Program-made: the position numbers and the translations under genes
IMG/VR virus record: IMGVR_UViG_3300048598_000585
Span: 1-50,742 of that record
Origin: a virus
Taxonomy: Duplodnaviria > Caudoviricetes
Strand: one strand, 5' to 3'
Length of the DNA: 50,742 nt
Notes under the pieces: generated by a model
Seen by the model: the letters and a program-made list of their open reading frames with translations, nothing else
What the model was told of the DNA's origin: nothing
Database searches by the model: none
In this document: one piece after another, positions 9,418 through 50,588 of the stretch
Numbering within the stretch: position 1 is the stretch's first letter
Layout: the number at the start of each line of letters is the position of its first letter

Positions 9418-9818
9418 CAGCCAGCTACCTCCACCAATTCGAACGACAGGTCTGATCTGCCGAGCCCGTAGGTCGACTCCAAACGGTTCGCGAAGCGAAC
9501 ACAGTAGCGGCCGATTGTCTCCGCCCCAGTCGGATCATGGCTGAAGCAGGGCGCCGTCTCGGCCGGATCATAGAACCAGAACGTTCGGAGTGGCCCCCCC
9601 AGACTCTCGTAGAAGCTCACAACTGAGTCGACCTGCGGAGGTGTGCAGCGCCGCGATAGGCGCCAACTCCGGCGCGTCTCATCCACCAATGCGCGCCGGA
9701 TCGAGTCACCGGATGGAAACTCATTCGTGAGCACACTGCCGGTTCTGGTCTGCTCGAACAGTTTCGACAAGCCCCACGGCATCACCAACGTGGGGCTCTC
9801 CACGGAAACGTTCGTCAC
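9417..9818 (-). CDS. Distal tail (Dit/gpM-like) protein
   Basis: 133 aa immediately after tape measure; FYESLGG..FWFYDP, VRF, ELVEV pattern. Confidence 0.7.
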   Translation of the reverse strand: MTNVSVESPTLVMPWGLSKLFEQTRTGSVLTNEFPSGDSIRRALVDETRRSWRLSRRCTPPQVDSVVSFYESLGGPLRTFWFYDPAETAPCFSHDPTGAETIGRYCVRFANRLESTYGLGRSDLSFELVEVAG

Positions 9819-12800: not shown

Positions 12801-13177
12801 TCCTCGTTTTCGAAGCCGATCCGCTGGATGGCCTCGGAGTACTTCATCGCATCCTCTGCCGCGATGCCGTGAGCCTTGGCCAACTGCTGGGTGACCACCG
12901 TCATGCGGGACACCTGAGAGGCCGCCTCGATGGCGCCCACGGTCCAGTCCTTGGCCCAGGTGAGTGCGGCTTTGATGGCCTCAGCAAAGAGGTTGCCGGC
13001 CGCCGCGCCTTTGGCCATGCTCACAGTCAACCCGTCAATCCCGCGAGAGGCGCCGCGGGCCGCATTGGCCGCGGTTGATTCCATGCTCGACAGGCCGGTG
13101 TTGACGCTCTTGATGGAGGCATTGGCTTTGTTGACGTCGACTTCGACGACGAGTTCGAGCTTGTTGTCAGCAGCCAT
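9815..13177 (-). CDS. Tail tape measure protein
   Basis: 1120 aa, helical/coiled-coil Ala/Gln/Glu-rich with Gly-rich hydrophobic C-terminus; position after tail chaperones. Confidence 0.88.
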   Translation of the reverse strand: MAADNKLELVVEVDVNKANASIKSVNTGLSSMESTAANAARGASRGIDGLTVSMAKGAAAGNLFAEAIKAALTWAKDWTVGAIEAASQVSRMTVVTQQLAKAHGIAAEDAMKYSEAIQRIGFENEDALHAIDRLIVADMELSKSEGLAKLAKNAAAIEDVSAGEALQGIIQAIESGASRGLRSMGIFVDFQKETLIQELKLGRALTESEERQTRYNAVMREGAKIQGAHAASAGEAEVMLKGLKREVHDLQEEVGARFQEDFKSLIGNLRGLVGWLRENTDWLGKFGQAALWVSGILASYALADKIMALAKSVAALNLAKLNPYALLATGVVAAGAIVYSNWKDTQAQVSNGVDEKQRQALRDDLFNGKTSLDQLRKQGMTDDQIRELVSGRKALPGESFGPVESRIAIKKGSEPDVESLKRAVEIRKRQLEVEHESRQAALEAGAKGQLGFARELAEMNARIEKWTTFTDDRSATRRISLTHQAWESVITELGNRWSAFREKFQKDNREQLAEYLKGEEEAARRRMDLDAEVLQRRLQYNEEIARRNLEQSERMLGIEEQRAGISRDARLRALEAVDAQTLAQKITVEQQKAQIEVDYLGRVHDVKMRLFEIETARMVLEEEANMSRLGYRADEIKARIAELNQQRDEIRAANQEATDAAIDAARQNAANRTAAMVRDHNRQLFDSFKRQAEGVFDALLTKSQSIWSAIGSSLKNALLTAIKDVVSSRVAAMLMQLFTGTKVAFQQGGMGGGGMSGKLGGALWLGALPVFGGSGSPGQIVIPGGGIPGVTTGTFTGQPIVFGGGGSVGNGSAGGGGGLLGMLGLRGAGKGNMAGMLGNLKDFLGFGGGGVQYAPGMATTWQAATMAQKLSALGRSNAALLGGGLLAMDGLRRGGITGLAETTAGGALMGFKFGGPVGAAIGTAVGATAGIVRLFIKGAEEKVRAKIKATYGIDVSDKGVLKQIVDIARQGFGGNFDLAIQSPQVREILELYSLNTGQPWRGRNVAALPVSMLQKGNRISFLPPTNAGGIQAPWSSGAGIGGATNVVAATPNPPAAVASVKLTLSLDGPATERFLQGQAVQAIGQQPRTVANAMGEAYGQNYSRRETYAGFADPGLVTNT

Positions 13178-17368: not shown

Positions 17369-17409
17369 TGTGGTCGGAAGTGAACTTCGAAGGGCCAGTT
17401 CGTCCGTGA

Positions 17410-17763
17410 TTAGAAAGATCCGTTTAGGCGGACTCGAACCGTGGCATCACCCGTGGCCCCGCCGAGGGCGGACGCTCCACTGGGTTGGATTAGGGCGGCA
17501 ACGCCTATTGCAAGGTTGGTGCCAACCGTTGAGGTGGCCTTCTTCGCTGTGTCATCCCAATAGACAGCCGCGCCATCGGTGAACGTGCTCGTGTCCTTGG
17601 CCAGGTCAAACACGCCTTCGGTTGCCGCCTCAATGATGTCATTGAGGGCAGCGTCGACTGCGGCCACGCCAAACATCACGCCCACCTTCATGCCCCCTCC
17701 ACTCGATACAGCATAGGGAGCTTTCATCGGGAGCGGATCACCCTTCTGGATGTAGTTCGTCAT
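17410..17763 (-). CDS. DUF2190 family capsid cement/decoration protein
   Basis: MTNYIQKG...FGVA..EGVFDLAK...VYWD...VRVRLNG signature. Confidence 0.88.
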   Translation of the reverse strand: MTNYIQKGDPLPMKAPYAVSSGGGMKVGVMFGVAAVDAALNDIIEAATEGVFDLAKDTSTFTDGAAVYWDDTAKKATSTVGTNLAIGVAALIQPSGASALGGATGDATVRVRLNGSF

Positions 17764-17832: not shown

Positions 17833-19917
17833 TTATGCGGTGTTCTTCTGCAACCCGCGATGGTCGATCGCCGCGGCAGCGAAATCCAGGCGAGCCTTGA
17901 TCTCGACGCCGTCCACCTCGAAGCCCTGCCGGGTCTCGATGTAGACACCCGGCTGCCCCTCGAGATAGCAATACTCGATCGTGTCAATCGCGCTCGGGTC
18001 GGCCGCCGTGTACCAGTTCGTGTCTCCGACGCTGGCCACTGCGTCCAAGCGCGGCTCCACGATCGGCACCATGGCGCGCACGAAGGCCGGCACATCGGCC
18101 GAAGATGCGGTGGCCGACAAGTTGATCGGATTGGTGAGCTGGACCGCAATGCCTTCCAGCGCCGCCGGGATGATGAGGAACTTGGGAATCAGGTTCAGGA
18201 TCGTGCCCTTGGGCGCAGTCTGTTTGCGCATCACTTTGCGCGCCGCCGTGATGTTGGCCACCGCCGCGAGGCCATTGGTAGCCGTCAGGTTCTTGTGCGT
18301 GGCGTGGAACAGAGGTACTCCGTCAGCCATTGCCGCATTCGCCGTGATCACAGCCCAGACGGCGTCGCTTTCGAGCGTGGCGGCCGCGATGCCCAAACCG
18401 GCAGGAATCCGCGTCAACGCCTGGAGGTCGTCGTTGAGGACCACCTTCCTGGTGATCGGCACGATCCCGCCCCAGGTCGTCAGCGCGTAAGACTCCTTGG
18501 AGTCGCTCACATAGATGCGCACGAACTCCCCGTTTTCGTTGGTCTTCTGCAACGCGGCAATGTCGCTCAGCTGAATGCGATTCACCGGCTTGAAGTCGAG
18601 CGCGGTAACCTGCCGGCAAAACGGCACGAACGTGCGGGGCGCCGCGTCATAGGCCTGGCGCAGAGTCTTGTTGGCGACGTTGGCCAGGATGTTGGGAAAG
18701 TCGCTGGTGGTCATGGCGCCGTCGAAATACTCCGACGCCCCATGCCGGCCCTGGAGTGCCACCCGAGCGATCTCGTTGCGGGACAGGCCGCGCGTCTTCA
18801 CGCCGACGGCATTCAGGCATTCCCGCGCCATGTCTACCAGCGTGAGCCCGGCAAAGTCGCGGCCCTTTTCGAACATCTCGCCGGAGGCGCGCGGGCTGCC
18901 TCTCAACAGCAACGCAGCCTCCATCCCTTCCCGCCGCTTGTCCACCTCATCCTTGCCGCCGAACGTGGCGAGCGGGTTGATCGGAAGCGTCGGATGCTTC
19001 TGAAACTCGGCATCGAGCTTCGTCATGATGCGCTCGCGAGCGATGTCGATAGAGACACCCTCGTCAATCAGCGCGGCGAGGAAGCTCTCCTCCACCTGGA
19101 AGGGACCGGTCGCGATCGCGCGAATGGCGCCCGCGCGCAACCGCTCCGCCTTCACCGCCTCGTCGCGCGCCGCGGCGAGGGATACATCGTTCTGCCGGGC
19201 CTCTTCGCCCGAAGCCTGCACTGTCTGTTCCATATCAGGTTTCTCCTTCTGGGCAGTTGCCCGTTGCACTTCAACTTGGGCCGGTTCTGCTGGTGTCGTT
19301 TCCGCCGCCGACATGAAAGTCGTGGCCGAGTCGGCAGGCACCGGCACGAGCGAGATCTCGAACGGCTCCCAATCGGTCGCGGTGAATTCCTTACGCTCCT
19401 GGCCCTTCGGCGTGGTGTCGACCTTCCTGTAAATCCACATGCCGGGGCTGAGGTTCTGAATAATGCCGCCCTTGACGTCGTTCCAGACCGGCGTCACGGC
19501 ATCCCGTTTGCTGAACTGGAGCGTGGCCAGGCCGGTGGACTTCTGGGCCCATGCCTTGCGCACCACTCCGAGTTGACTCTCCACCCCGTAGGCGGAATGC
19601 GAGTCCAGCACGGGACTGCCGTTGTTCAGACGCGCCATGCGGCAGCCTTTCATGTCGAGGATGAGGTCGTATTCCTCGCCGCTGCGCCAGTCAAACCGGG
19701 GTATCTTGGCGCCCGTGTACCAGACCGCGTCGATGGTGCGAGCATCGTCATCGGCCGACGGCGGAGCGAAGGTCGCCACCACAGTGAAGCGTTCGACCTG
19801 GACCTCCGATGGTTCCGGGTGAGGCTCGGGCTGCGCAACGGCGGCAGTGGAAACTACTTCGACGGGAATGAGCTCCGGAGCAGTCTCCGGCGCCGTCCCC
19901 GCGATTTCTTCGGGCAT
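17833..19917 (-). CDS. Prohead protease-major capsid protein fusion
   Basis: N-terminal PVLDSH and WEPFEISLVPVPAD protease motifs; capsid TTSDFPNILANVANK...ARLDFAAAAIDHRG. Confidence 0.92.
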   Translation of the reverse strand: MPEEIAGTAPETAPELIPVEVVSTAAVAQPEPHPEPSEVQVERFTVVATFAPPSADDDARTIDAVWYTGAKIPRFDWRSGEEYDLILDMKGCRMARLNNGSPVLDSHSAYGVESQLGVVRKAWAQKSTGLATLQFSKRDAVTPVWNDVKGGIIQNLSPGMWIYRKVDTTPKGQERKEFTATDWEPFEISLVPVPADSATTFMSAAETTPAEPAQVEVQRATAQKEKPDMEQTVQASGEEARQNDVSLAAARDEAVKAERLRAGAIRAIATGPFQVEESFLAALIDEGVSIDIARERIMTKLDAEFQKHPTLPINPLATFGGKDEVDKRREGMEAALLLRGSPRASGEMFEKGRDFAGLTLVDMARECLNAVGVKTRGLSRNEIARVALQGRHGASEYFDGAMTTSDFPNILANVANKTLRQAYDAAPRTFVPFCRQVTALDFKPVNRIQLSDIAALQKTNENGEFVRIYVSDSKESYALTTWGGIVPITRKVVLNDDLQALTRIPAGLGIAAATLESDAVWAVITANAAMADGVPLFHATHKNLTATNGLAAVANITAARKVMRKQTAPKGTILNLIPKFLIIPAALEGIAVQLTNPINLSATASSADVPAFVRAMVPIVEPRLDAVASVGDTNWYTAADPSAIDTIEYCYLEGQPGVYIETRQGFEVDGVEIKARLDFAAAAIDHRGLQKNTA

Positions 19918-19945: not shown

Positions 19946-21508
19946 TTACGAGGTGTAGCTTCTCGTCGGTGAATCCCACTGCCGGGCCGAATGTTTCACC
20001 GTGCCGGGCTGCTTGACGGGTGGCGCCGGCGCCGTTTCGCCGTCGACGGTGGGCTGCTCGACGCCCTTGTCATTCACGTGGCGCGGATCGCAGTCCAGGA
20101 TGATGGCGTACGCGTCGAGTACTTCGTTCATCCGCTTGATTTCCTGCAACTGCTTTTCTGGGTCGTAGCCGTTCTGCGCGATCGCCTCTGCCAACGTCAA
20201 CGTGCCGGTGCGGATGCGCTTCAACTCAGCCATCGCATCCTTGAGCGGATCAACAGACTCAAACTTGGGCGCCGTCCACTGCACGCCATAGTTGGCTTCT
20301 GGAATCTTTCCGATGAACACCAGGGTGTCGATGAACCGCCGCCACGTCGGTCGGCAGTACATCGGGATCAGCGTCAACCACCGGAACGCTTCGATGGCAT
20401 TGCGGAAGCCGAGCATCCCCGCGCGATATGAGGAATAGTTGACATTCGACAGATCCCCGGACAGCAGCTCATAGGGCACGTCGATGCCGGCGCCGATCCC
20501 CTGCAACTCAGTCATCAGGTAGTCGCGGTAGCCGCCGGCTGGCGAAGGCGCATTGAACTTGATGTCTTCGCCCGGCTTCAAATACTCGATCATGCCGGGG
20601 TACATCCGCTCCAGCGTGTTACCCGTCTTCGGGTCCGTGGACTTCGTGCCGATGGGCAAGCCACTGGCACCTTCGCTCCGCGTGACGATACCCGCCAGGC
20701 ACGCTTCGGTCTTCTTCCGCAGGCGCTCGGCGTCCCGGTAGTCGTCGAGGTCCCGCAGCGCCAACATCACTGGAGCCAGCCAGGGCACGCCGCGCACCTG
20801 GCCGGGCCGCAGGATGCAGTAGGTATGCATCACCTGGGCTGAAGGCACCGGTTGGCTCGCCAGCCCACCGCGCCAGTTGATGGTGATTCCGCCTCCGGGG
20901 TGGTTGTTGTAGAGCCAGTAATACTCGCGCTGCCCGAACAGGTTGAACTGAACGCCTTGGATGACCTGCCCGCTCGCAAGCCCGGTGGTCTTGGAGATGT
21001 CGAGGAAATCACCCTCCAGTACCTGCAACTGGAGCGGCACGCGAAAGTTGTCCTTCGAGAGCCGGGGCCGGAACCGGACAATCCCGTCGCCGCTTTCAGC
21101 CGTTGTTCGTACAATGAGCGCCTGCATCCCATAGAAGTCCAACTGCCCGCCCGGGTCGCAGTTCTCTGCGAAGTAGAGCCACTCGGCGTCGATGATCTTG
21201 TCGAGCGCAGATGTCCCAGTCTTCGCCTGCGGAACAATTCCGGTTCCCACGGTGTTGCCCACCAGTTCGGCGATGGCCTTGCTGGCGTACGGATTGTTCC
21301 GCAGCAGGTCGCGCGACCGGTTGCGCAGGTTGCTCAGCGAGGCACCAACCTCGGTGTTGGCGTCCCCGCCTGCCGCAATCCAGCCGTCTGTGCGGCGGCC
21401 CAACTTCGCACCGTCATAGGCGAACATCTCGGCCGCGGCGCGGAGCCGCGCACGGCGATAGGCCCGCTCCGGCGAGAAGTAACCGATCATCTTGTCCAGG
21501 GCGTTCAT
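19946..21508 (-). CDS. Phage portal protein, lambda family
   Basis: LRNRSRDLLRNNPY, RPGQVRGVPWLAPV, GDLSNVNYSS and VDPLKD motifs. Confidence 0.95.
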   Translation of the reverse strand: MNALDKMIGYFSPERAYRRARLRAAAEMFAYDGAKLGRRTDGWIAAGGDANTEVGASLSNLRNRSRDLLRNNPYASKAIAELVGNTVGTGIVPQAKTGTSALDKIIDAEWLYFAENCDPGGQLDFYGMQALIVRTTAESGDGIVRFRPRLSKDNFRVPLQLQVLEGDFLDISKTTGLASGQVIQGVQFNLFGQREYYWLYNNHPGGGITINWRGGLASQPVPSAQVMHTYCILRPGQVRGVPWLAPVMLALRDLDDYRDAERLRKKTEACLAGIVTRSEGASGLPIGTKSTDPKTGNTLERMYPGMIEYLKPGEDIKFNAPSPAGGYRDYLMTELQGIGAGIDVPYELLSGDLSNVNYSSYRAGMLGFRNAIEAFRWLTLIPMYCRPTWRRFIDTLVFIGKIPEANYGVQWTAPKFESVDPLKDAMAELKRIRTGTLTLAEAIAQNGYDPEKQLQEIKRMNEVLDAYAIILDCDPRHVNDKGVEQPTVDGETAPAPPVKQPGTVKHSARQWDSPTRSYTS

Positions 21509-21509
21509 G

Positions 21510-21722
21510 CTAATCCCTGCTGTGCGTCGCCAGGCTGAACGCAGAAGGAGCAGCAGTACCTTGCGCGGCAATTTCCGACTCAAGATCCACGATGGCCTTC
21601 CGGATTTCGTCCATGCTTTGGTACTCGACAGCGCGATCGGTGAATTGCACACGTCGCACGCCGGCATACTTGGCGCGCTTCAATGCGTCAAGCATGGATT
21701 GCATCTCGGCAGCAGTGATCAC
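21510..21722 (-). CDS. Head-to-tail adaptor (gpW-like)
   Basis: 70 aa between terL and portal; GVRRVQF.DR.VEY.S..EI pattern. Confidence 0.85.
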   Translation of the reverse strand: MITAAEMQSMLDALKRAKYAGVRRVQFTDRAVEYQSMDEIRKAIVDLESEIAAQGTAAPSAFSLATHSRD

Positions 21723-23656
21723 TTGAACCACCCTTTTCCGCACAGCCAGGCGTTGTCGCACTCGCCCCAGTACTCGTCCGTCCGGTCCTCGCGAGGAACC
21801 TCAGTCAGAGTGTTCCCCTCCAGTTCCGCCCACTCAGCTTCCGTGAACCGATCGATCCCGCAGACGGAGGCGGCTGCCCGGCAGAGCACGGCCAGGTCGA
21901 GCGGTTCGTTCCTTACGGTCGGGTCCTTCACCCACTCGATCTTTCCGCTCTGGGCGCGGACCACCCGCGATTCCGAGCAGAGGCCCTTGTAGAAGTCCGG
22001 ATCGCCATAGGCATAGTGCTGATAGCCAGCCGGGAAGGCCTCATCGGGATCGGTCGGCAACTCCAGCCGCAGCCAGTCGTAGAACTCCTGCTTGGCCCAG
22101 TGCGTCCCAATGCTCCAGATGCGGATTCCCTGACGCCGTCGCGCGGCGTCAGTACCGGACACGGAGGCGATCAACTTGAAGGCGTGGTCGGTACCCTTCG
22201 TTGGGATCACCGTCCGAGGTGCAACGATCTGGTCACCAGCTGGCCCGTGCGCCGGTTGCGGATGGCGCGAGGCAAACTCGTAGACCATCTGTGGCCGGAA
22301 GCCGGAATCAACCGCCATCGCCATGATCGGCAGCGTGCCGCCGGAGGCGCTTCGCCAGTCCCGCGCCAGCAGCGCATCCAGTTCCTGCCAGACCTCGGGA
22401 CTGGACGTCTTGAGAGCCTGCCCAGAGGCGTCCGGTAGGCGGATGACCTGATAGTCCACCGACCAGGATTCTTTGCCGCGCCCGTACGCCTTCACTTCCA
22501 CTTCAAGCCGGTCATCCTGAACATCGACGCCTGCTACAAGGAACAAGCCACCGACCGGCACAATGCCGAGAGGGTACTGCTCGCGTCGCAGGTAGATCTT
22601 CTCCCAATCGGGTGCAATCCCGCGCTCGGCCCAGAGTTCGGCAAGCACTGTATTCATGAACGCCTTCAAGGTCTCGGGGGACTTCTTGGACGCCACAAAC
22701 TCAGTGGCAATGGTTCCCCAAGCGCGCTTCGGCGAAATCATCTGCGACACGCGGAATCCTGGAATCGGCGAATCCGGATTCTGTGCGCGGTAGACGCCAT
22801 GCTCAACCATCCATCCCTTGTGATGGTGCGGGATGAGTTCCTGGCAGTGCTCACACCGGTAAGCGGCCCTTTCCGGATCGCCCTCCGGCCATACCAGCCC
22901 GCCGCCCGTGCCATCTCCGAGCACAAGTACTTGGAAGTGGTTGCACATCGGGCATGGAACGAAGTACTCACGCTGGTCGCTCTCATTCCACGCCAGTTGG
23001 ATTCTGCTTTGGCCGTCGATGGTCGGCGTCGAGCACATGACGATCTTCTTGTTGTGCTCGAACTCGCTGGTACGACGAACAGCCAGGGACACCGGATCGC
23101 CTTCCGATCCAGCGCTGGCCGGATAGCGGTCCACTTCGTCGAGCAGCAGATAGCGGATCGGCCGCATGGCCAGGCCAGATGGCGAAATGGCTCCGGTGAA
23201 GGTGATGTGGCCAGAGCCGTTGGTGAAGACCTTGTGCAGCGTCGTGTTGTTGGCATCGCGCGACTTGACGGCCGCGATCTTCCCACGCAGACAGGGCGTG
23301 TTCCGGAACATCGGCGCCACCCGGTCTTTCGACAGCGCCTTGGCGTCTTCTGACCGCGGCTCGACCACCAGCACCGGGCCCGGGTCAACGTCGGCGACAA
23401 ACCCAAGGAAGTTGACCAACACCGAGGTCTTTAACATTTGGGCACTTGACATCAGAACGACCTGTTTGCAGGGGTGCGATGGGCTCAGAACATCCATCGG
23501 CTCGCGCTGATACGGCCGTGTATGCCATTGCCCGCGCTCGGCCGCGGACGCGCCAGAGAGAACGACGTTTTCATCTGCCCACTCAGAGACAGTAATCTCG
23601 CGCGGCGGCAGCATCGCCTCTGATCCGACTGCGTGCATTGAGAAGGGAGTAGCCAT
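21719..23656 (-). CDS. terL: Terminase large subunit, GpA family
   Basis: PYQREPMD, SAQMLKT (Walker A variant), LLLDEVD, STPT, VPCPMC zinc motif, GVDVQ and RNEPLDL. Confidence 0.95.
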   Translation of the reverse strand: MATPFSMHAVGSEAMLPPREITVSEWADENVVLSGASAAERGQWHTRPYQREPMDVLSPSHPCKQVVLMSSAQMLKTSVLVNFLGFVADVDPGPVLVVEPRSEDAKALSKDRVAPMFRNTPCLRGKIAAVKSRDANNTTLHKVFTNGSGHITFTGAISPSGLAMRPIRYLLLDEVDRYPASAGSEGDPVSLAVRRTSEFEHNKKIVMCSTPTIDGQSRIQLAWNESDQREYFVPCPMCNHFQVLVLGDGTGGGLVWPEGDPERAAYRCEHCQELIPHHHKGWMVEHGVYRAQNPDSPIPGFRVSQMISPKRAWGTIATEFVASKKSPETLKAFMNTVLAELWAERGIAPDWEKIYLRREQYPLGIVPVGGLFLVAGVDVQDDRLEVEVKAYGRGKESWSVDYQVIRLPDASGQALKTSSPEVWQELDALLARDWRSASGGTLPIMAMAVDSGFRPQMVYEFASRHPQPAHGPAGDQIVAPRTVIPTKGTDHAFKLIASVSGTDAARRRQGIRIWSIGTHWAKQEFYDWLRLELPTDPDEAFPAGYQHYAYGDPDFYKGLCSESRVVRAQSGKIEWVKDPTVRNEPLDLAVLCRAAASVCGIDRFTEAEWAELEGNTLTEVPREDRTDEYWGECDNAWLCGKGWFK

Positions 23657-25831: not shown

Positions 25832-27091
25832 TCATGCAGCTACCTGCAGGCGCTCCGCCGCCACCTCATCGAATGCCCTGCCGTCGGATTCAAGCGTTGG
25901 GACCTTACCGCTGAAATCCAGGAAGCGACGGCAGATCGTGTCCACGTATTTCGGATCGAGCTCAATCAATCGTGCCTGCCGCCCGGTCTTTTCGCAGGCG
26001 ATCATCGTAGTGCCCGACCCGCCGAATGGATCCAGAACCGTGTCACGTGTCTTGCTGCTGTTGCAGATCGCACGTTCCACCAACTCCACTGGCTTCATCG
26101 TCGGATGGATATCGTTAACGTGCGGCTTCTTGATGAACCACACATCACCCTGATCACGGGCTCCGCACCAGAAGTGATCCGTCCCCTCTTTCCAGCCGTA
26201 GAGGATCGGCTCATACTGCCTCTGATAGTCAGAGCGCCCCAGCGTGAAGGTGTTCTTCGCCCAGATGACAAACGTCGACCAGTGACCGCCTGCTTCTCGG
26301 AAAGCCTTCTCGAGCGTGTGCAGCTCTGAAGACGACATGCAGATATAGATGGCGCCCTTGGTGACAGCCAATATGCCGGAACATGCATCGAGAAGGAACT
26401 GCTCGAATTCCGCGCCAAGATTGTCATTGGCGATTTTGCGATGCTTCTTGCCACCAGCCTTGGCCTTCGTCGTAGCACCGTAGTTGACGTTGAACGGTGG
26501 ATCGGTGAAGACCATGTCTGCCAGGCCGCCCGCCATGACCTTTTCGATGTCGGCGAGCTGCGTCGAGTCTCCGCACAGGAGCCGGTGTTCACCAAGCACC
26601 CAGACATCGCCGGGCACGGTGACGGCCGTCTCCGGCACTTCCGGGACCGCATTTTCAGGCGTCAATCCAACATTGGCCGCATCCGGCTCCACCAGCAGCA
26701 TTTCCAGTTCCTGGTCGGTGAACCCAACCAGGTCGAGGTTGAATCCGTCCGAGCTGAGACTCTGGAGTTCGACCCGCAGCATTGCCTCGTCCCAACCTGC
26801 GTTGAGGGCAAGCCGATTGTCAGCGATCACCAATGCACAGCGCTGCGTTGCGCTCAGGTGATCCAGAACAATGACAGGGACCTCGGACAAGCCTAGTTTG
26901 CGGGCGGCAAGCAGGCGGGCGTGGCCAGCGATGATGATTCCGTCGGCGCCGGCGAGGATCGGATTTGTCCACCCGAATTCGGCAATTGATGCCGCGATCT
27001 GGGCGACCTGTTCGTCACTATGGGTGCGAGCGTTCCGGACAAATGGAATCAGCTTGTCGACAGGCCACGTTACCACCTGCAGGTTCGTCAT
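25832..27091 (-). CDS. ParB-N-fused DNA methyltransferase (N6/N4 family, DPPF)
   Basis: NARTHS..ASIAEFGW..IIAGHAR ParB domain; FTDPPF; HPTMKP; DPFGGSGTT. Confidence 0.93.
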   Translation of the reverse strand: MTNLQVVTWPVDKLIPFVRNARTHSDEQVAQIAASIAEFGWTNPILAGADGIIIAGHARLLAARKLGLSEVPVIVLDHLSATQRCALVIADNRLALNAGWDEAMLRVELQSLSSDGFNLDLVGFTDQELEMLLVEPDAANVGLTPENAVPEVPETAVTVPGDVWVLGEHRLLCGDSTQLADIEKVMAGGLADMVFTDPPFNVNYGATTKAKAGGKKHRKIANDNLGAEFEQFLLDACSGILAVTKGAIYICMSSSELHTLEKAFREAGGHWSTFVIWAKNTFTLGRSDYQRQYEPILYGWKEGTDHFWCGARDQGDVWFIKKPHVNDIHPTMKPVELVERAICNSSKTRDTVLDPFGGSGTTMIACEKTGRQARLIELDPKYVDTICRRFLDFSGKVPTLESDGRAFDEVAAERLQVAA

Positions 27092-43296: not shown

Positions 43297-43636
43297 TGCG
43301 GAGCCTCCCGGCCATTTCGACTTCCATCGAGAACGGCAGCCCATGCTTAACTTCGAGCGTCCGGATTTCCCCGATGTCGACGGCACGAACGTACTCGAAC
43401 AGTTCGGCTACCTGCGGTTTGAGTTCGAACTCGGCAGCTGGGACCTTCGACGCGCCCGGCTCCTGGGAGCCGAACTTCACTTCGCGCACGGAAGTAGGCC
43501 ATGGGGTGAGCACGATCTCGCCGCGCTCAATGCGGAGATACTCGAACCGCCCGAATCTGAGCGTCCGAATTGCGGCGATCAAGCGGCGCTCGGAAAGGCG
43601 CAGATCTTTGGTGGTGGATGGACGGCGGCTGGTCAC
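43289..43636 (-). CDS. Hypothetical protein (115 aa)
   Basis: Coupled ORF; FGRFEYLRIERGE...LEVKHGLPF. Confidence 0.7.
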   Translation of the reverse strand: MTSRRPSTTKDLRLSERRLIAAIRTLRFGRFEYLRIERGEIVLTPWPTSVREVKFGSQEPGASKVPAAEFELKPQVAELFEYVRAVDIGEIRTLEVKHGLPFSMEVEMAGRLRNG

Positions 43637-43914
43637 TTCACCACCTCGGCGGCGGTTCCGGCGTCACTGAAGAGGTTGCCTAACCTGTTCTGCGCGTGTT
43701 CCTGCTGGTATCGAGGCGACGCGCCGATTGTGGTGAACCGTTGGCCTTTCTTCCCAGATCGGTATTCAGAGAATCCGCACGGGAGGGGAAGTCTGCGCGT
43801 GATCGCCAGGCTGGGACCCAGAATGACGGCGGCTTCACCTTCACCCAATCGCCGCTCAACGCGCGGCACCCCATCGGCGCTGCATTGAATCTGTTCTTGA
43901 ATTGCAGTCACCAC
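43633..43914 (-). CDS. Hypothetical protein
   Basis: Fills the gap at the head of the early operon; overlaps the next start. Confidence 0.35.
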   Translation of the reverse strand: MVTAIQEQIQCSADGVPRVERRLGEGEAAVILGPSLAITRRLPLPCGFSEYRSGKKGQRFTTIGASPRYQQEHAQNRLGNLFSDAGTAAEVVK

Positions 43915-44078: not shown

Positions 44079-44903
44079 CTATTCCCGTTCCCGCGCCGAC
44101 GAGGGTAATCGCGTGATTCCCGACAGCACGTTCTCAATTCGCTTCGCCATGACCGAATCCTGGCTAAGCTTTCCGTGCCGCCAGCGCTTCATGTCCGTCT
44201 TATAGACATTGGCTGCCCGACAAATGGCGGCAATGCTCACTCCGTGTTGTTGTCGGAATTTCTGGAGCCTCGCCTCGCGCTCTAGCGCCAACCCGGCCGC
44301 CGTGGGCTCGGTTGCTTCCCGCGGTCGCACGGACCGCGTGCTTCCCACCATGTCCGATGTCATGATGCCGTCGCCGGGCCTTTGTGATGACGAGCCAATT
44401 GCATGCAGACCACAACTCCGGCGTTTCCAGGACTCCAGCTTCAGTCGAGCAATGTCCTTGGCCGCAGCCGAATAGACGAGCCGCTGAAAGTGAGCTAAGG
44501 TTTCTGGCATTTCTTTTGCCGACACGAGGTCGTAGGGGTGTAGTTTCTGCTGGTAAGTTGTGCCCGCCACGTCGGCAACGCAATGCTGAGTGAATGACTC
44601 GAAGCGCGCCGGCTCGTCCGTCTCTTCGTCCGCCACAACAAGAATCGCGAGGATCACCGTGCGGGCGTAGTCGATAGCCGCTTTCCAATGCGGCGGGATG
44701 GACGATTGAGAACTGCGGCCGATGAGCTTCGGGTTCTGAACTGTGGATTCAGCCCAATCAGCTGCGGATGCCTCTGAATGAAAGACGATTTCTGCGGCCG
44801 CCGAAGCTCCCCGCACAGGCAGCGTGCTTGCGAGAGATCGCATCCATTCCTCGGCCTCTCCATCCGGAGTCCGAGGAGGGTCGCCGCCTTTCTTCGTGCT
44901 CAC
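44079..44903 (-). CDS. Putative transcriptional regulator with C-terminal Xre-like HTH
   Basis: QQHGVSIAAICRAANVYKTDMKRWRHG..MAKRIENVL; GAGG RBS. Confidence 0.6.
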   Translation of the reverse strand: MSTKKGGDPPRTPDGEAEEWMRSLASTLPVRGASAAAEIVFHSEASAADWAESTVQNPKLIGRSSQSSIPPHWKAAIDYARTVILAILVVADEETDEPARFESFTQHCVADVAGTTYQQKLHPYDLVSAKEMPETLAHFQRLVYSAAAKDIARLKLESWKRRSCGLHAIGSSSQRPGDGIMTSDMVGSTRSVRPREATEPTAAGLALEREARLQKFRQQHGVSIAAICRAANVYKTDMKRWRHGKLSQDSVMAKRIENVLSGITRLPSSARERE

Positions 44904-45260
44904 CTCGCCTGCACCCCACTTTGTGCGGAAAAGAGATGCGGAGGCCAGGCCAGGATCTTCCTGCTCGTGGAGGAGAATATGGCGGCGCGCCGAACCTCAT
45001 CAATTTGCTCTTAAGTCGCTGGTCTGATGTGAGTCCTCCTTTGCTCAAGAACCTAGTGCAGCAAAGACCGCCTTCTAAGAATTGGCCGCCGAGTCGACAC
45101 GCGTACCCGGCTCGATAAAACCGAGTGCATCGTCTGTCAGAAGTGCAGGCGCCACCAGCAGCGCACGATGCCGAAGACTGCAGCGCCCGTCAGTGGTGGC
45201 CCGAATACCACAGGCCTGTCGTGCAGTCGGATTTCGTACGAGGATAGACCTCGCTCCGAC

Positions 45261-46457
45261 TCACCCCACGATGTGCTTGTCATTCAGCCCGGAGCAATTT
45301 GCGGTTACGACCTGCGCGAGGAAATGAGCAGTTCTTCTGACTTCGTGGGCCGACCATGGATTCACGATGATGGACTCACCGACGGTCAGAGTATATTCAA
45401 CGCCGGCGACCTCGATGCTCATTTCGCCTTCGAGTACGGTGTAAACCTCCGTGGCCCGACGGTGATAGTGACGGGATTGTTTGGCTCTCTCGTCGAACAG
45501 TGCGAATTCTACGCCGGCCGTGACGGCATAGTGGCGTTTCCCATTCTGAGCCAGTGCTGTCCAAACTACATCGCTGAGGCTTTCGGCGCCGGAGTACCTG
45601 TAGGTTATGGCGACTTTCTGATCGCCACGGTTGCCGAGGTGCGCTTTCGGGTTCCGCCGCGCCGCCTCAATCTCACCTGAGCGAAGAAGCACCGCGGGCA
45701 ACGGGAATCGCCAGAAATGGTCCATGGTTGTGAAAGCGTACAACGAGATGCTGCCGAACTCGATGGTGCGGCCAACGGTACAAATGGCGGCGGTCTCTGA
45801 CCATCGCTCAACATGCGCCGCAGCTTCCAGCGCCAGTTCTGGGTTGGCGAAATATCCAAGTGTGATGTGCGGAACCCACTCGGGGTTCTGTGGCTTCCCA
45901 AAGGCTGCAAACTGCTCATCTAGCTCACGCCGCCGTTGCTCAATTTGCGTCATGGTACGCTCGGATTCCTCATCCACCGGGGCTAAGCGTGCGATGAGCG
46001 CGGTTTGGCTAGGCAACACCGCGATTTCCGACAACCGGAATCGAATCTTCCACCTGCCGGGGAGTGGCAGCGTCGTTGGAGGGAACTGCGTCGGTAACGG
46101 GGCGACGATAGCCGCGGGGAGGCGGACAAGAACACCTTCGAAGACTTCGCGCTCGGGTTGACGGATCAGGTGGATGTTCGCACAGTGAACAAGGTCCTGG
46201 ACCGTAACGTGATAGGACGAAGACGGCGTCAGGCACACACCGTGGCTGCCTGCCAGTTGCTCCTTGCCGATCTTATCGATGGCCTGTGCCAAACCCCGGT
46301 ATAAGGAAAGATCGATACCTTCCATTTCTGATCGGATGACAGGCAATCCGTCTTCCTCGAAGGCAGGGCCCGGATTGTCGCAGATGTAGCTGAAACCGCG
46401 ACAATTGGCGAAAGCCGGAGGATCCACGGATTGGACCTTCGGGTTGGTGATTTCCAT
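45261..46457 (-). CDS. 2H phosphoesterase (DUF1868-like) fused to a C-terminal cupin
   Basis: Two HxT motifs (SYHVTV, VPHITL); cupin HYH...EVYTVLEG...PWSAH; AAAGGAG RBS before ATG 46457. Confidence 0.85.
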   Translation of the reverse strand: MEITNPKVQSVDPPAFANCRGFSYICDNPGPAFEEDGLPVIRSEMEGIDLSLYRGLAQAIDKIGKEQLAGSHGVCLTPSSSYHVTVQDLVHCANIHLIRQPEREVFEGVLVRLPAAIVAPLPTQFPPTTLPLPGRWKIRFRLSEIAVLPSQTALIARLAPVDEESERTMTQIEQRRRELDEQFAAFGKPQNPEWVPHITLGYFANPELALEAAAHVERWSETAAICTVGRTIEFGSISLYAFTTMDHFWRFPLPAVLLRSGEIEAARRNPKAHLGNRGDQKVAITYRYSGAESLSDVVWTALAQNGKRHYAVTAGVEFALFDERAKQSRHYHRRATEVYTVLEGEMSIEVAGVEYTLTVGESIIVNPWSAHEVRRTAHFLAQVVTANCSGLNDKHIVG

Positions 46458-46911
46458 AGTCTCTCCTTTGTGGCTGAACCAGACGTGGGTTGACAAGCGT
46501 TGGAGGCGGGCATGAGTGTAGTGGATCTACACGGGCACCGCGCAACGGCTGCCAGCTGTAAGAAGACGAGGATGCTGCTTCGGACCGAGAGAGGCCCGAT
46601 ATGGGAAGACAATGCTGGCCTGACGCGGCTGCTGTGGAAATGGCGGGGACACGGCTCAGGAGATCCGTGCCCCGAACCCCCGCCAGCGGGTTGTTTCAAA
46701 TTCAATGGCGTCACCACCTTTGCGAACCTGAACTTCAGACGCGCCGCATTGCTCTCGCGTCTATCTATGCAAGGGGATGGCCAACCTCGATTTCGGGCTG
46801 CGTCTCTGCGTCCTTCGCACGATGCCGACAGCGTGCTCGTGCGTTGTCAGAAAGTTGCGGCGGTGTTCATTCGTGCCTGTAGCTGTCCGATGATTTGCAC
46901 CTTGGGCTCAT

Positions 46912-46937
46912 GATACGAAATCTTCGTATCGATACGA
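46912..46937. promoter_or_regulatory. Overlapping palindromes (candidate operator/enhancer)
   Basis: GATACGAA-ATC-TTCGTATC and TCGTATCGATACGA. Confidence 0.55.
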
Positions 46938-46970
46938 CAACCGTGATAATCTGCCGGCAGAGGTGCTGTT

Positions 46971-48128
46971 GTGCGGAGCAAGAAGAGCATCCCGGTGGGC
47001 CTGCCTGTTGCCAGGGAGGAGCGGAGCGGAGTCCAAATCGTTGAGAGGGATGGGTATTGGAAAACCGAGCTCGGCGGCCACTTCCCACGCGGCGCACCAA
47101 CCTGCACTTTGGTCGGCACCCGCGAAGGCCTTGAAGAAGTACTTCGCCCTCTTCGCCTGGTGGGTCCGTGCGACGCCCGAGTGTTGATCACCGGCGAGAC
47201 AGGCACGGGCAAGAACACCGTCGCAGAGCTCATCCACCATATGCACCAAGAGCGGCGTCATCATCAATTTCGGCGAACAAATCTGGGCGCGCTGGTCCCG
47301 GAACTTGCGGCGTCGCAGCTATTTGGACACGTTAAGGGCGCGTTCACTGGCGCGGTGAAAGACTCGCCGGGAATTGTGGTTGAGTCAAATCACGGAACTT
47401 TGTTCCTGGACCAGCTCTCTGATGCGTCCGCAGCCGTCCAGACTATGCTGCTGACTTTGTTGGAGGTGAAGAAGGTGAACCCGGTCGGAGCCCATGGTGT
47501 GCCCGGAAAGAACGTCGACTTCCGGGTGATTGCCGGGACGATCGAATCTCCGGAAGAACTGCGCGACGCGCGCAAGGTCCGGGAGGACCTCTTCTACCGG
47601 ATCAACGAGTACCATATCGAGTTGAAGCCGCTGCGGTTTCGCCGCTCCGAGATTCTGCCGATGGCGAGGTTCTTCCTGGAGCGAGCACGCGAACTGCGGA
47701 AAGATATCTCGGTTTTGACTGATATCGCTCCTGATGCTCAGCGGGCGCTTGATGCCTACCCATGGCCGGGGAATGTGCGGGAGCTTGATCACACGATTCG
47801 TGGGGCCGTGGTTGAGTCGCGGGCGGACCCGACCGCGACCGTCCTGGAGGCGCAGTGGCTTCGCATGGCGCCGCAGCGATCCTATCGGGCGTCCTCGGTC
47901 GACTACGAAACGGCGCTCCACCGATTCAGGCACGAGTGGGCACATCGGCTCTTAGCGAACGGACTCAATAACAAGAGAGCTGCGGCAGCTATGGGGATCT
48001 CCCAGGACTCGTTCCGCAAGTATCGCGACTGGAATGAGCCAGGCACGGGCGAATGGCCGAGCGGCAATACCCTTCCGGATGGCTCGCCGCAGGTACTCAG
48101 ATCAAAGGGCGCTGCGCATGGGCAGTGA
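46971..48128 (+). CDS. Sigma54-interacting AAA+ enhancer-binding-like protein without a sensor domain
   Basis: GETGTGK, LFGHVKGAFTGA, LFLDQ, REDLFYRI, WPGNVREL and Fis-like HTH. Confidence 0.9.
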   Translation: MRSKKSIPVGLPVAREERSGVQIVERDGYWKTELGGHFPRGAPTCTLVGTREGLEEVLRPLRLVGPCDARVLITGETGTGKNTVAELIHHMHQERRHHQFRRTNLGALVPELAASQLFGHVKGAFTGAVKDSPGIVVESNHGTLFLDQLSDASAAVQTMLLTLLEVKKVNPVGAHGVPGKNVDFRVIAGTIESPEELRDARKVREDLFYRINEYHIELKPLRFRRSEILPMARFFLERARELRKDISVLTDIAPDAQRALDAYPWPGNVRELDHTIRGAVVESRADPTATVLEAQWLRMAPQRSYRASSVDYETALHRFRHEWAHRLLANGLNNKRAAAAMGISQDSFRKYRDWNEPGTGEWPSGNTLPDGSPQVLRSKGAAHGQ

Positions 48129-48530
48129 CTTGGCTGCAATGGCGGATTCGGCGCGCAGATCGGCGAACTCGCATTGCTGGTCCTCCCACAGAACCATCTG
48201 CGCCACCGCTCGGAGGGTCCTTTCCGGAATCGAGGCGTGCGTTGGCTGTATTTCCGACAAAAGCACTTCCTGAATGGTGGGTGCAAGGAGTGAAAGGTTC
48301 ATGATCTGAGTTAGACGGGCTCGCGTGACGTAGCCGAGCCTGGCCAAGTCGGCGTAGTCGCGGACCTCGCCGCGGTCCACCATCTCCTGGAGCTTGATGG
48401 CGAGTGCCATTAAACGTGTGATCCGTGGAATGCGCGGCGCCGTCGGTTCCGGTGCCGGTTTCCGCTTCGCAAGCCGCCCGGCCCGCCTAGCCCAATTTAG
48501 TGGGATCTCCCGTTCGTGGGTTTCTTTCAC
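48102..48530 (-). CDS. Recombinase-cassette accessory protein (HTH-like)
   Basis: DYADLARLGYVTRARLTQIMNLSLLAPTIQE; overlaps the recombinase stop. Confidence 0.75.
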   Translation of the reverse strand: MKETHEREIPLNWARRAGRLAKRKPAPEPTAPRIPRITRLMALAIKLQEMVDRGEVRDYADLARLGYVTRARLTQIMNLSLLAPTIQEVLLSEIQPTHASIPERTLRAVAQMVLWEDQQCEFADLRAESAIAAKSLPMRSAL

Positions 48531-50065
48531 TTCGGCACTCCCTGTTGGCAGAATTCGCTAATCCCGTTTGAGTTGTAGGTGACCCTTACTTTGTCGCCGC
48601 GGGCGTCGTAGCCGACACGCTGGACCAGTTGGCGCACCAGACGGCACTGCTGTTCGATCGTCAGCGTCTTCCAGACTTCGTCGAAGTTGCCCAGCTCCCG
48701 GCGCACCAGCGAGTCGTCAATCCGGAGCCGATCGCCGCGAGCTACGGACTTGCTCAGTTGCTCGGCTTTCGCCTGACCCGCCTCGATCGATTCACGGAGT
48801 GTCGCTTCCCGTTCGGCGTCCATCGCCATCGCGCGTGCGAGTTGCGACTTTGAGTTGCGGGTTTGCACGTTTACGGCCTTCAGCTCCTCGCGACGTCGGT
48901 TTAGTTCTTCTCCCAGACGCTGACGTGCGGCGCGAACTGCTTCCTCCACCACTTTCGGTGCCAGCACGAAGTGCCGGATGCTTTCAATCACCGCCTCCTC
49001 GACCACCGGCGCGGAAACCGCCCGCGTCGTACATCCATCGCCGCTCCGTTGGCTTGCCCGAAGGCAAACGTAGTAGCGATACCGACGTTGCTTGCTGGAC
49101 GAGTACGTGGGCGACATCGCCGACCCGCAGCACGTGCAGTAAAGCAGGCCACGGAGCAGAGACTCCAGCCTCGGCCGATGCTGGGTTCCCGGATTGCGGG
49201 TGTTCTCCTTCAACTTCTCTTGGACCAGGTCAAAGGTCCGGTCGTCGACTGTCTGGGCGTGGTTGGCTGCGACAACCTCATCGTCCGCGCGGATGCGTGC
49301 TGCATAGAGCGGGTTCGCCAATATATTGTAGACGTGGCACTTCCGCATGGGGTGGCCACCGTACAACTTGCCATCCTTGGTCGTCCACTGCTTGTTATGC
49401 CAACCCAGATCGGCGCACTTCGCCACGATGCCATAGACCGTATGGCCTTCCAAGTACCACTCGAAGATTTGCCGTACGCGGTCGGCTTCCTCTGAGTTGA
49501 CCACGAGGCAATTGGCGTCCAGGTCGTAGCCCAGCGGAAGGTGGCCGCCGGTCCACTTGCCCCGCTTCCGCGCCAGGACTTGTTTGTCGCGTGTGCGCTC
49601 GGAGATGATCTCTCGTTCGAATTGGGCGAACGACAGCAGGATATTCAGCGTGAGGCGGCCGAGGGATGTCGTGGTGTTGAACTGCTGCGTGACAGAGACA
49701 AACGTCGCGCCTTGCGCGTCCAAAATCTCCATGATCTTGGCGAAGTCGCGGATGGAGCGACTCAGCCTGTCCACCTTGTACACAACCACGCAGTCGACCT
49801 TCTTGGCCTGGACATCGGCCAGCAGCCGGCGCATGGCGGGACGCTCCATGTTGGCGCCGGTGTACCCGCCGTCGTCATATTGGACTGGCAGGAGAGTCCA
49901 TCCCTCGCCTGCCTGACTGCGGATGAATGCCTCGCCGGAATCACGCTGGGCGTCGAGCGAGTTGAAGTCCTGGCCCAAGCCTTCCTCCGTCGATTTTCTC
50001 GTGTAGATGGCACAGCGCACCGTTGGGCGCTCCTTCGTTCCGTTGCCGTTATTTTTGTTCGCCAC
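48527..50065 (-). CDS. Large serine recombinase (integrase)
   Basis: CAIYTRKST, VYKVDRLSRS, FAQFERE, recombinase domain, LYCTCCG zinc ribbon and coiled coil. Confidence 0.96.
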   Translation of the reverse strand: MANKNNGNGTKERPTVRCAIYTRKSTEEGLGQDFNSLDAQRDSGEAFIRSQAGEGWTLLPVQYDDGGYTGANMERPAMRRLLADVQAKKVDCVVVYKVDRLSRSIRDFAKIMEILDAQGATFVSVTQQFNTTTSLGRLTLNILLSFAQFEREIISERTRDKQVLARKRGKWTGGHLPLGYDLDANCLVVNSEEADRVRQIFEWYLEGHTVYGIVAKCADLGWHNKQWTTKDGKLYGGHPMRKCHVYNILANPLYAARIRADDEVVAANHAQTVDDRTFDLVQEKLKENTRNPGTQHRPRLESLLRGLLYCTCCGSAMSPTYSSSKQRRYRYYVCLRASQRSGDGCTTRAVSAPVVEEAVIESIRHFVLAPKVVEEAVRAARQRLGEELNRRREELKAVNVQTRNSKSQLARAMAMDAEREATLRESIEAGQAKAEQLSKSVARGDRLRIDDSLVRRELGNFDEVWKTLTIEQQCRLVRQLVQRVGYDARGDKVRVTYNSNGISEFCQQGVPK

Positions 50066-50588
50066 GCGTCACTCCTGGCCGGTGTCCCAGTCCATAGAAG
50101 GCGAAGCCGTTCCATCGCGTGCCCGTGGCTTCGGTCACGGCTTTGCTCAACGACCTGTAGATCCTGCCATTCCACTCAAAGCCGCCGTCTGCCCGGACAT
50201 GGACGATGATGTCCTTCCCCTGATAGCGGCGGATTAGGGGTGTGCCCGGCAATGGCAGTCGCGGGTCGAGTCCTGGCCTTAGCCGCGCCTCCGCCGTTCT
50301 GGTCTCGTCGATGGCCTGCCTCAGTAAGTTCTTCGGCGCGCGGATGCGCAAGTCGGCGTCGTCCGCGATCTCGAGCGCGCGGCTCCGCGCACGCTCCGAG
50401 AGCCCGCCCCACGCGTTCGCCTGAATGCGCCAGGCAATGCGGCGGAACAGGAACTGCTTGTGATTGGATCGGGAGGCCTCACTGAAGACCTCACGATACT
50501 TATCCTTAAGCTGCGCGGTGGTCAGGTGGCGCAGGCTCTCGATCTCTTCTCTGATCCGGGTTGGCTCGATTGCTGTTTCGTTTCTCAT
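50049..50588 (-). CDS. DUF2924 domain protein
   Basis: RRIAWRIQ..GGLS, PGT.LIRRYQG and YRSLS.....TGTRWNG..F motifs. Confidence 0.92.
   Translation of the reverse strand: MRNETAIEPTRIREEIESLRHLTTAQLKDKYREVFSEASRSNHKQFLFRRIAWRIQANAWGGLSERARSRALEIADDADLRIRAPKNLLRQAIDETRTAEARLRPGLDPRLPLPGTPLIRRYQGKDIIVHVRADGGFEWNGRIYRSLSKAVTEATGTRWNGFAFYGLGHRPGVTRGEQK

Follow-up and report, generated by a model that had tools for sequence, protein, structure and literature searches.

We describe a gene of a temperate phage, carried on the 50,742-nt IMG/VR record IMGVR_UViG_3300048598_000585 (Duplodnaviria; Caudoviricetes), which encodes a protein of 398 amino acids (aa) consisting of a 2H phosphoesterase domain joined to a cupin. 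The window analysed is this complete provirus record, which CheckV estimates to be 92% complete, and all positions refer to it (Table 1). The fusion gene is a prophage accessory (moron-type) gene, located outside the structural and replication modules and forming a transcription unit of its own, and its 2H domain belongs, on the basis of the predicted structure, to the uncharacterised DUF1868/Atu0111 branch and not to Acb1 or LigT. The reading we favour, tentatively and at somewhat less than even probability, is that the fusion protein is a host-derived accessory enzyme acting on a ribose or sugar (cyclic) phosphate, with the cupin binding or converting the same small molecule.

The 2H phosphoesterases use metal-independent acid-base chemistry to cleave phosphodiesters adjacent to a free hydroxyl, and are central to RNA repair, to the turnover of ADP-ribose cyclic phosphates and to the destruction of immune nucleotide signals by phages. 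For the DUF1868/Atu0111 branch a structure was solved in 2006, and to our knowledge its substrate is still without assignment. The conserved partnership of 2H and cupin, found both as a fusion and through a shared membrane anchor, provides a handle for finding this substrate, and the fusion gene together with the phage sigma-54 activator next to it makes up a compact two-gene system in which function and regulation can be approached.

Fusion protein and its 2H domain

The fusion gene occupies a single open frame (45261-46496, minus strand) with the ATG at 46457 as its start, and the start region, AAGGAG plus ATG, is identical or nearly identical across five related metagenome loci. The preliminary description of this DNA had proposed a 2H domain joined in frame to a cupin, and this is what was found: there is one 398-aa open reading frame (ORF), and the two-domain form is kept in relatives, both close and distant.

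The Pfam family 2_5_RNA_ligase2 (PF13563) matches residues 138-223 with 31.6 bits (cut-off 27), and both HxT motifs, H83-V-T85 and H197-I-T199, are in place. A family alignment of 33 sequences shows no variation at H83, T85 and H197 and has S or T at position 199 in 32 of them (A in P0008), which argues for a working active site. Together with the 2H structures that head the comparisons given below, this bears out the complete 2H fold with two HxT motifs read earlier from the sequence. Other Pfam matches of the fusion protein are weak, namely LigT_PEase and DUF1868 (PF08975), the latter with 12.5 bits and an E-value of 0.15, which misses its gathering score of 21; PF08975 is matched at E<=0.01 by eight of the 33 family members. 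A search of the PDB with the 2H family profile gave no match at the sequence level.

The structure was predicted with AlphaFold2 from a 74-row alignment mixing fused, 2H-only and cupin-only rows, which replaced a shallow-alignment run that had left the cupin below 50 in the predicted local distance difference test (pLDDT). In the resulting model both domains are folded (mean pLDDT 94.8), and the predicted template modelling score of 0.87 suggests a fixed orientation between 2H and cupin domains in the modelled protein. Residues 1-252 were compared with 48,161 chains using VIA, and 2H structures head the VIA and Foldseek lists alike. The top VIA match is 2FSQ (Atu0111, DUF1868), with a Z-score of 14.4, 204 residues aligned and a root-mean-square deviation of 3.6, followed by a trypanosome mitoribosomal 2H-like protein (Z 11.2), the LigT-like structures 4QAK (11.0) and 1VGJ (10.8), and the further 2H folds drCPDase (10.2), AKAP18 (9.8) and Usb1 (9.5). 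With Foldseek the top PDB match is again 2FSQ (E 3.6e-8, and 7.9e-8 in a separate run), the phage phosphodiesterase 9Q2G is at PDB rank 5 (E 4.5e-4) and Acb1 (7T27) at rank 38 (E 0.02), and in BFVD a DUF1868 protein of a giant virus comes first (E 1.5e-8) with Acb1 models from rank 17 onwards (E 1.4e-5). Of the three candidates for which the preliminary description had proposed structure prediction and Foldseek comparison, DUF1868 is therefore the closest, LigT/ThpR comes behind it, and the likeness to Acb1 holds at the level of the superfamily only.

Cupin module

The Pfam model Cupin_2 (PF07883) matches residues 325-376 with 43.5 bits against a cut-off of 27.2, and the metal motif H330-x-H332-x4-E337 plus H371 is present, with the metal-site columns at least 80% conserved across 42 cupin modules. 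The metal-ligand His and Glu residues which the preliminary description had pointed out were thus recovered as conserved HxH...E...H columns. Further blocks conserved to at least 80% in these 42 modules are G..K..VT, Q.RH.H...TE.Y, GD...V.P...H.V and a C-terminal DK. Residues 256-398 also have stand-alone relatives of ~146-154 aa with 39-47% identity, and in 23 stand-alone cupin relatives the three His are invariant and the Glu is conserved to at least 90%. Judged by its sequence, the cupin module is a distinct family of its own, of ~145 aa.

In structure comparisons many small cupins were matched (Z 9-11 with VIA), and the nearest folds are the archaeal cupin-type phosphomannose isomerases (Foldseek E ~5e-7). 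A search of PDB sequences with the cupin profile gave the quercetinase YxaG (E 7e-14) and cupin-type phosphomannose isomerases (E 3e-9). The likeness to phosphomannose isomerases is at the level of the fold only: among the isomerase family models (PF01050 and PF21621), MPI_cupin_dom reaches 14.3 bits against a cut-off of 27, and PF01050 is unlisted for the fusion protein. No functional cupin subfamily model in Pfam or NCBIfam reaches its cut-off; NCBIfam gave nothing near a cut-off for the fusion protein, the best match being the cupin sensor part of PuuR, and PHROGs gave a weak cupin match only.

Relatives and recurrence of the fusion

A word-indexed protein search found 110 proteins, 13 of which, including the query, have the two-domain form at 82-100% identity. 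The 12 further clusters in this group have 82-85% identity, ten of them with 397-398 aa and the other two shorter (P0012, 388 aa; P0013, 342 aa). Two of the 110 are partial copies, and the remaining 95 match the 2H part only, at 27-37% identity; 94 of these are stand-alone proteins of 225-276 aa, with P0103 having 336 aa. A few of the stand-alone 2H relatives carry names from their sources, either 'DUF1868 domain-containing' in Paenibacillus or hypothetical in Capsulimonas, Kiritimatiellia and a cyanobacterium.

When 1.84 billion representatives were searched exhaustively with HMMER, 474 matches at E<=1e-3 were obtained, of which the best 150 were examined. These included distant fused forms (P0112-P0117 and P0119) with 34-46% identity to the fusion protein, so that the domain-architecture search called for by the preliminary description does find 2H-cupin and 2H-bicupin forms recurring in distant microbes. 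In a local domain parse of 251 proteins, 196 were 2H-only and 33 cupin-only, while 15 were of the 2H-cupin type, namely P0116, P0119 and the 13 members of the close clade (P0117 is likewise 2H-cupin), and four had the order 2H-cupin-cupin (P0112-P0115). Pfam confirmed Cupin_2 in P0112-P0115 and P0119, and P0112 ends in another 2H domain, of canonical type. In P0123, P0169, P0180 and P0238 the cupin-like domain is more divergent, with the Cupin_2 score of P0180 (26.3 bits) just under the cut-off.

A FastTree phylogeny of the 2H domains was calculated from 85 rows, consisting of all 25 multidomain rows and every third of the 178 solo rows, and leaving out 11 near-duplicate or partial rows of the close clade and 118 solo rows. 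Nine of the ten cupin-fused rows fall within one 14-row clade with 98% local support, the tenth (P0119) lying outside it on a long branch. Judging by this clade the prophage gene would therefore have been captured from a 2H-cupin subfamily that already existed, and the pairing of 2H and cupin, as far as these sequence relationships go, is old, cellular and recurrent and not a one-off.

The cupin module was also found behind multi-pass membrane N-termini (P0167, P0217, P0206, P0209, P0168 and P0157), and in P0167 and P0217 this membrane module shows homology to that ahead of the 2H domain in P0154 (BLASTP E 1e-4 and 4e-3). Besides being fused to each other, the 2H domain and the cupin thus also occur as alternative cargos of a single anchor, which argues that both act on the same thing. 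The shared membrane module starts with an EE[WY]xxLRxE motif and belongs to no Pfam or PADLOC family. Other relatives have extra N-terminal domains for which there was no Pfam match even at E 5; the ~300-aa N-terminal domain of P0114 resembles GT-A folds and glycosyltransferase family 2 (GT2) in the ESM Atlas (feature score 0.92; template modelling score 0.56-0.67 to GT2 clusters), and those of P0145, P0126 and P0238 are linked to it by BLASTP. This GT-A likeness is a lead only, because Pfam finds nothing there.

The preliminary description had not recognised the fusion as a characterised architecture, and our literature search agrees with this, as in articles without their supplements nothing was found on DUF1868 and nothing linking a 2H phosphoesterase with a cupin. 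The accessible parts of the literature on 'BCSR5' yielded nothing about the phosphodiesterase. Both superfamilies are known; no description was found of the 2H-cupin architecture, of the family of the cupin module or of the shared membrane anchor.

Viral, plasmid and chromosomal surroundings of the relatives

IMG/VR, outside the phage's own prophage lineage, yielded no relative in scans with the whole protein, the 2H family and the cupin module, and a tblastn search of 50,697 phage genomes gave no match. PADLOC likewise gave no match for the fusion protein, its neighbours or ten relatives. Scanning genome contigs with the fusion protein returned 14 short matches confined to the cupin (query residues 330-393). 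Only two matches were obtained from plasmids, both of them 2H-only: the copy on a Priestia megaterium plasmid has GNAT acetyltransferases on one side and two NUDIX hydrolases on the other, and that on a Leisingera thetidis plasmid is part of a capsule locus in which Stealth, sulfotransferase and GT2 genes are also present.

A metagenome scan gave 80 loci, five with the fused form (L016, L017, L018, L019 and L090) and 75 with a stand-alone gene. For 46 of the 75 stand-alone loci, selected by length, the neighbouring genes were clustered without being annotated, and no neighbour family recurs beyond clade-level synteny; therefore there is no recurrent RNA ligase or kinase partner among them. The best real neighbour cluster is present in nine of the 46 loci, all from one group, and a cluster with 13 loci turned out to be an antisense ORF over the gene itself. 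The stand-alone relatives are scattered lone genes in varied surroundings. The preliminary description had counted against its own proposal the case of homologs that are chromosomal metabolic genes in sugar or phosphonate operons. The homologs are indeed non-viral and mostly lone, with one plasmid copy in a capsule sugar locus, but a conserved sugar or phosphonate operon is not seen across the 46 loci.

Prophage setting

The fusion protein is also seen on a 223,042-bp contig, and the element is therefore integrated. The description of the gene as prophage cargo holds for a window which, besides its IMG/VR classification as a provirus, contains a terminase, a portal, a protease-capsid protein, a Sak4-like annealase, an exonuclease and a serine integrase (Table 1). 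By PHROGs and Pfam the phage genes further include a minor tail protein, a helicase/exonuclease V-like protein, an ERCC4 nuclease, a DUF669 single-strand-binding protein and a sigma-70-like factor, and the exonuclease is of the PD-(D/E)XK type. The fusion gene has the early/regulatory genes on one side and the serine integrase on the other, its non-coding flanks measure 357 and 513 nt, and its locus has a slightly lower G+C content of 0.578-0.580 compared with ~0.60-0.63 nearby. No tRNA gene was found anywhere in the 50.7-kb window.

Table 1. Positions of the features in the 50,742-nt window
Feature	Position	Strand	Basis and remarks
2H phosphoesterase-cupin fusion ORF (P0001)	45261..46457	-	398 aa + stop; Pfam domains and AlphaFold model
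2H phosphoesterase domain, DUF1868/Atu0111-like branch	45696..46457	-	Residues 1-254; N-terminal beta extension common to 2FSQ
First HxT motif, H83-V-T85	46203..46211	-	H83 and T85 invariant in 33 sequences
Second HxT motif, H197-I-T199	45861..45869	-	H197 invariant; position 199 S/T in 32/33
Cupin module, residues 256-398	45264..45692	-	Short helical/strand lead-in plus Cupin_2 barrel
Cupin metal-site motifs H330, H332, E337 ... H371	45345..45470	-	Conserved alignment columns
Shine-Dalgarno sequence AAGGAG	46463..46468	-	5 nt ahead of the ATG; kept in 5/5 related loci
Candidate sigma-54 -24/-12 element TGGCCATCCCCTTGCA	46768..46783	-	Faces the ORF, ~310 nt upstream of the ATG; inferred
Three CGTATC/GATACG half-sites (TCGTATCGATACGA, then TTCGTATC)	46911..46937		Candidate activator/operator site; inferred
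Divergent sigma-54-dependent activator	46971..48128	+	AAA+ with GAFTGA, lid and C-terminal helix-turn-helix (HTH)-like tail
Large terminase	21719-23656		PHROGs/Pfam
Portal	19946-21667		PHROGs/Pfam
Protease-major-capsid fusion	17833-19917		PHROGs/Pfam
Large serine recombinase	48527-50065		PHROGs/Pfam; right end of the window

Among the five fused metagenome loci, L016, L017, L018 and L090 have a homologue of the activator divergent upstream of the fusion gene, and L019 begins at the gene. A 274-aa neighbour (44079-44903, minus strand, in the window) follows the fusion gene in L017 and L019, the sole two loci reaching far enough. L019 is broken into several frames, and L090 has small indels. The 274-aa protein had no match in Pfam, PHROGs, NCBIfam, PADLOC or the PDB; by eye its C-terminal part looks HTH-like. 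The ORF at 43633-43914 (minus strand) and its counterpart in L017 (3275-3526, plus strand) are alike over ~40 residues and then diverge, which suggests a frameshift or indel in one copy, and the L017 form resembles a small DNA-binding protein by eye.

Elsewhere in the window, the large serine recombinase is accompanied in the three-gene integrase block (48102-50588, minus strand) by a small protein (phrog_14161, 'recombinase') and a DUF2924 protein. The ORF at 25832-27091 (minus strand; phrog_498, E 4e-154) combines a ParB-like nuclease domain with a DNA methyltransferase, which is a known phage arrangement. The tail region contains two very large ORFs on the minus strand, encoding 1120 aa (9815-13177) and 1549 aa (4768-9417), the first of which has no PHROG match at E<=1e-5.

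Candidate sigma-54 control

The divergent activator matches the Pfam model Sigma54_activat (PF00158) with an E-value of 6e-46, and the GAFTGA motif can be read in its translation. It is without an N-terminal sensor domain, with ~45 aa ahead of the AAA+ domain in a PspF-like layout. In PHROGs it falls into phrog_7998, a family of unassigned function (E 1e-33). The NCBIfam models for RtcR (199.9 bits) and NorR (198.8 bits) both score far under their cut-offs (650 for RtcR), and the PADLOC model RtcR_PspF2 matches with an E-value of 2.6e-65, covering the AAA+/HTH part only. With RtcR tying with NorR and the CARF domain absent, the idea of an RtcR-like activator was dropped.

In the 513-nt gap common to the fusion gene and the activator, TGGCCATCCCCTTGCA fits the pattern TGGC-N7-TTGCW, which has two matches in the window when both strands are searched, compared with 0.99 expected by chance. 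A looser scan allowing two mismatches gave 72 matches with 58 expected and was therefore not informative. The region 44800-47100 yielded neither a sigma-70-like promoter nor an intrinsic terminator. The three half-sites, read by eye, precede the candidate -24/-12 element by ~140-165 bp and are largely, though not perfectly, conserved in the related loci; they were absent from the repeat-search output. From this arrangement it is reasonable to suppose that the fusion gene would be under sigma-54 control by the adjacent activator.

A perfect sigma-54 consensus, TGGCACCAACCTTGCA, is located at 17509-17524 (minus strand), within the coding sequence of a small ORF (~17409-17763, minus strand) immediately downstream from the protease-capsid gene. 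It is ~130 nt ahead of the ATG of the next ORF, and could be an internal promoter for head-tail genes served by the phage sigma-54 activator, or a chance occurrence.

Proposed function and alternatives

We propose that the temperate phage carries a soluble two-domain enzyme, which would be neither structural nor replicative, and that the phage lineage may have obtained it by capturing a member of an existing cellular 2H-cupin subfamily. The DUF1868-type 2H domain would most probably open a cyclic phosphate, or else cut a phosphodiester with a neighbouring hydroxyl, on the ribose or sugar of a small molecule derived from a nucleotide or a nucleoside diphosphate (NDP)-sugar. The cupin, with its metal site of three His and one Glu, may bind this substrate by its sugar or nucleoside moiety, or may carry out a second step such as an isomerisation. 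As its own transcription unit at the integrase end, the gene would be expressed from a sigma-54-type promoter that is probably activated by the adjacent phage activator. The leaning towards a small molecule comes from the NUDIX-flanked plasmid copy, the copy in the capsule locus, the lack of a recurrent RNA ligase or kinase among the clustered, unannotated neighbours in 46 loci and the phosphomannose isomerase-like structural neighbours of the cupin.

Several observations weigh against this proposal. The closest solved protein, 2FSQ, is itself without an assigned function, the NUDIX and capsule neighbours are single cases, and no conserved partner emerged from the neighbour clustering. An isomerase role for the cupin is a guess, because its nearest relatives among PDB sequences, YxaG and the cupin-type phosphomannose isomerases, are mixed. 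The sigma-54-like site TGGCCATCCCCTTGCA is non-consensus at three of 12 positions, and in the five related loci it is exact in two, keeps GG/GC with one change in two and has altered spacing in one; a promoter there would also give a leader of ~310 nt with no significant predicted structure (z -1.07). Finally, the gene is kept at 82-85% identity in the phage lineage, and it may be used in conflict with host defences.

It is this last use that the preliminary description had put first, suggesting that the enzyme degrades cyclic oligonucleotide or ADP-ribose (ADPR)-type immune signals, with the cupin sensing or modifying the product. In the form considered here, the 2H domain would degrade such signals of the cyclic-oligonucleotide-based anti-phage signalling system (CBASS), type III CRISPR or Thoeris, as Acb1 does, and the cupin would help to bind the product or convert it further. 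An anti-defence enzyme of this kind appears distinctly unlikely, and our analysis gave it no specific support. The fusion protein is phage-borne, is conserved within one prophage lineage and shares its superfamily and catalytic tetrad with Acb1, which is described as a compact 2H fold of ~150 aa with a C-terminal lid and an HxT/HxT tetrad (PMC9117128), and both Acb1 models (BFVD) and 9Q2G (PDB) appear among its structural matches. However, ~97% of the Acb1 relatives are of phage origin (PMC9117128), whereas IMG/VR, the 50,697 phage genomes and PADLOC returned nothing for the fusion family, whose relatives are overwhelmingly lone non-viral genes. Its domain of ~255 aa has the DUF1868-type N-terminal extension instead of the compact form with a lid, 2FSQ scores well over the other 2H folds, and the gene is situated at the integrase/regulatory end and not among early lytic genes. 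A more elaborate version, which we rate as a long shot, is a two-step counter-defence or signal-editing family in which the 2H domain would open a ribose-linked (glyco)cyclic messenger, such as glycocyclic ADPR (gcADPR) or products of cyclic oligoadenylate (cOA) ending in a cyclic phosphate, the cupin would convert the product irreversibly, the phage would deploy the pair through sigma-54, and the membrane-anchored relatives would represent the cellular side of the conflict. If the substrate were an immune messenger, this would be a new class of counter-defence; if it were a sugar cyclic phosphate, a function would be assigned to an orphan enzyme branch.

An RNA end-processing enzyme seems unlikely, although PF13563 is above its cut-off, the LigT-like structures have Z-scores of 10.8-11.0 and the divergent activator scores highest, if narrowly, against RtcR models. 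Such an enzyme would be a 2',3'-cyclic phosphodiesterase resembling ThpR/LigT that works on the ends of damaged tRNA or mRNA, controlled by its sigma-54 activator in an rtcR-rtcBA-like arrangement. The ThpR model TIGR02258 reaches 13.4 bits against a cut-off of 65.7, the RtcR match covers the AAA+/HTH part only, ties with NorR, stays far under 650 bits and comes without CARF, the clustered but unannotated neighbours in 46 loci include no recurrent RNA ligase, kinase or cyclase partner, and a cupin of the small-molecule type would be an odd companion. A further alternative is a glycan or sugar-nucleotide enzyme for lysogenic conversion or sugar-phosphate salvage, whose 2H domain would open sugar phosphodiesters or the 1,2-cyclic phosphates of hexose or ribose, with the cupin isomerising the sugar phosphate. 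Lysogenic-conversion genes are classically found beside int, the Leisingera plasmid copy is flanked by capsule genes (Stealth, sulfotransferase and GT2), the cupin is similar to phosphomannose isomerases of the cupin type, and the GT-A/GT2-like lead in P0114 extends through BLASTP links to P0145, P0126 and P0238. We nevertheless regard it as improbable, with one of two plasmid contexts being glycan-related, no conserved glycan neighbours in the 46 loci, no Pfam match for those N-terminal domains, MPI_cupin_dom below its cut-off and, by eye, no obvious hydrophobic segment in the fusion protein. That the cupin is the main catalyst, for example as a metal-dependent dioxygenase or lyase, with the 2H domain only binding a nucleotide-like ligand in a regulatory or targeting role, is very improbable: the best PDB match of the cupin profile is the quercetin dioxygenase YxaG, and the module exists alone or on transmembrane anchors without a 2H domain (33 of 251 proteins being cupin-only), but the catalytic His and Thr of the 2H domain are invariant in the 33 sequences, including all the fused ones.

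Comparison with known systems

The likeness of the fusion protein to Atu0111 (2FSQ; PF08975, '2H-phosphodiest') takes in the N-terminal extension and spans the entire 2H domain (model residues 1-252), with 14-15% identity, and Atu0111 has no cupin. With LigT/ThpR (PF02834, PF13563, TIGR02258; 4QAK and 1VGJ) it shares the 2H fold and the two HxT motifs, but its 2H domain is ~70 residues longer and fused to a cupin, and the TIGR02258 score is far from its cut-off. Like the Acb1 proteins of T4 and FBB1 (7T26, 7T27) it is phage-borne and has the 2H fold with the HxT/HxT tetrad, whereas its 2H domain of 254 aa with an N-terminal extension matches them at superfamily level only, and its relatives are metagenomic or bacterial lone genes as opposed to the mostly phage relatives reported for Acb1. 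The cupin module has the same Cupin_2 barrel and HxH...E...H site as the archaeal phosphomannose isomerases 7ZVM and 7ZVY and B. subtilis YxaG (1Y3T), at 21-25% identity, and is distinguished from them by extras of its own, namely the G..K..VT lead-in, a Q-x-R before the first His and the C-terminal DK. The gene arrangement recalls rtcR-rtcBA, in which a sigma-54 activator is likewise divergent from a gene for phosphoester chemistry, but in the phage the activator lacks the CARF sensor, RtcB and RtcA are absent, and the partner gene encodes the 2H-cupin fusion.

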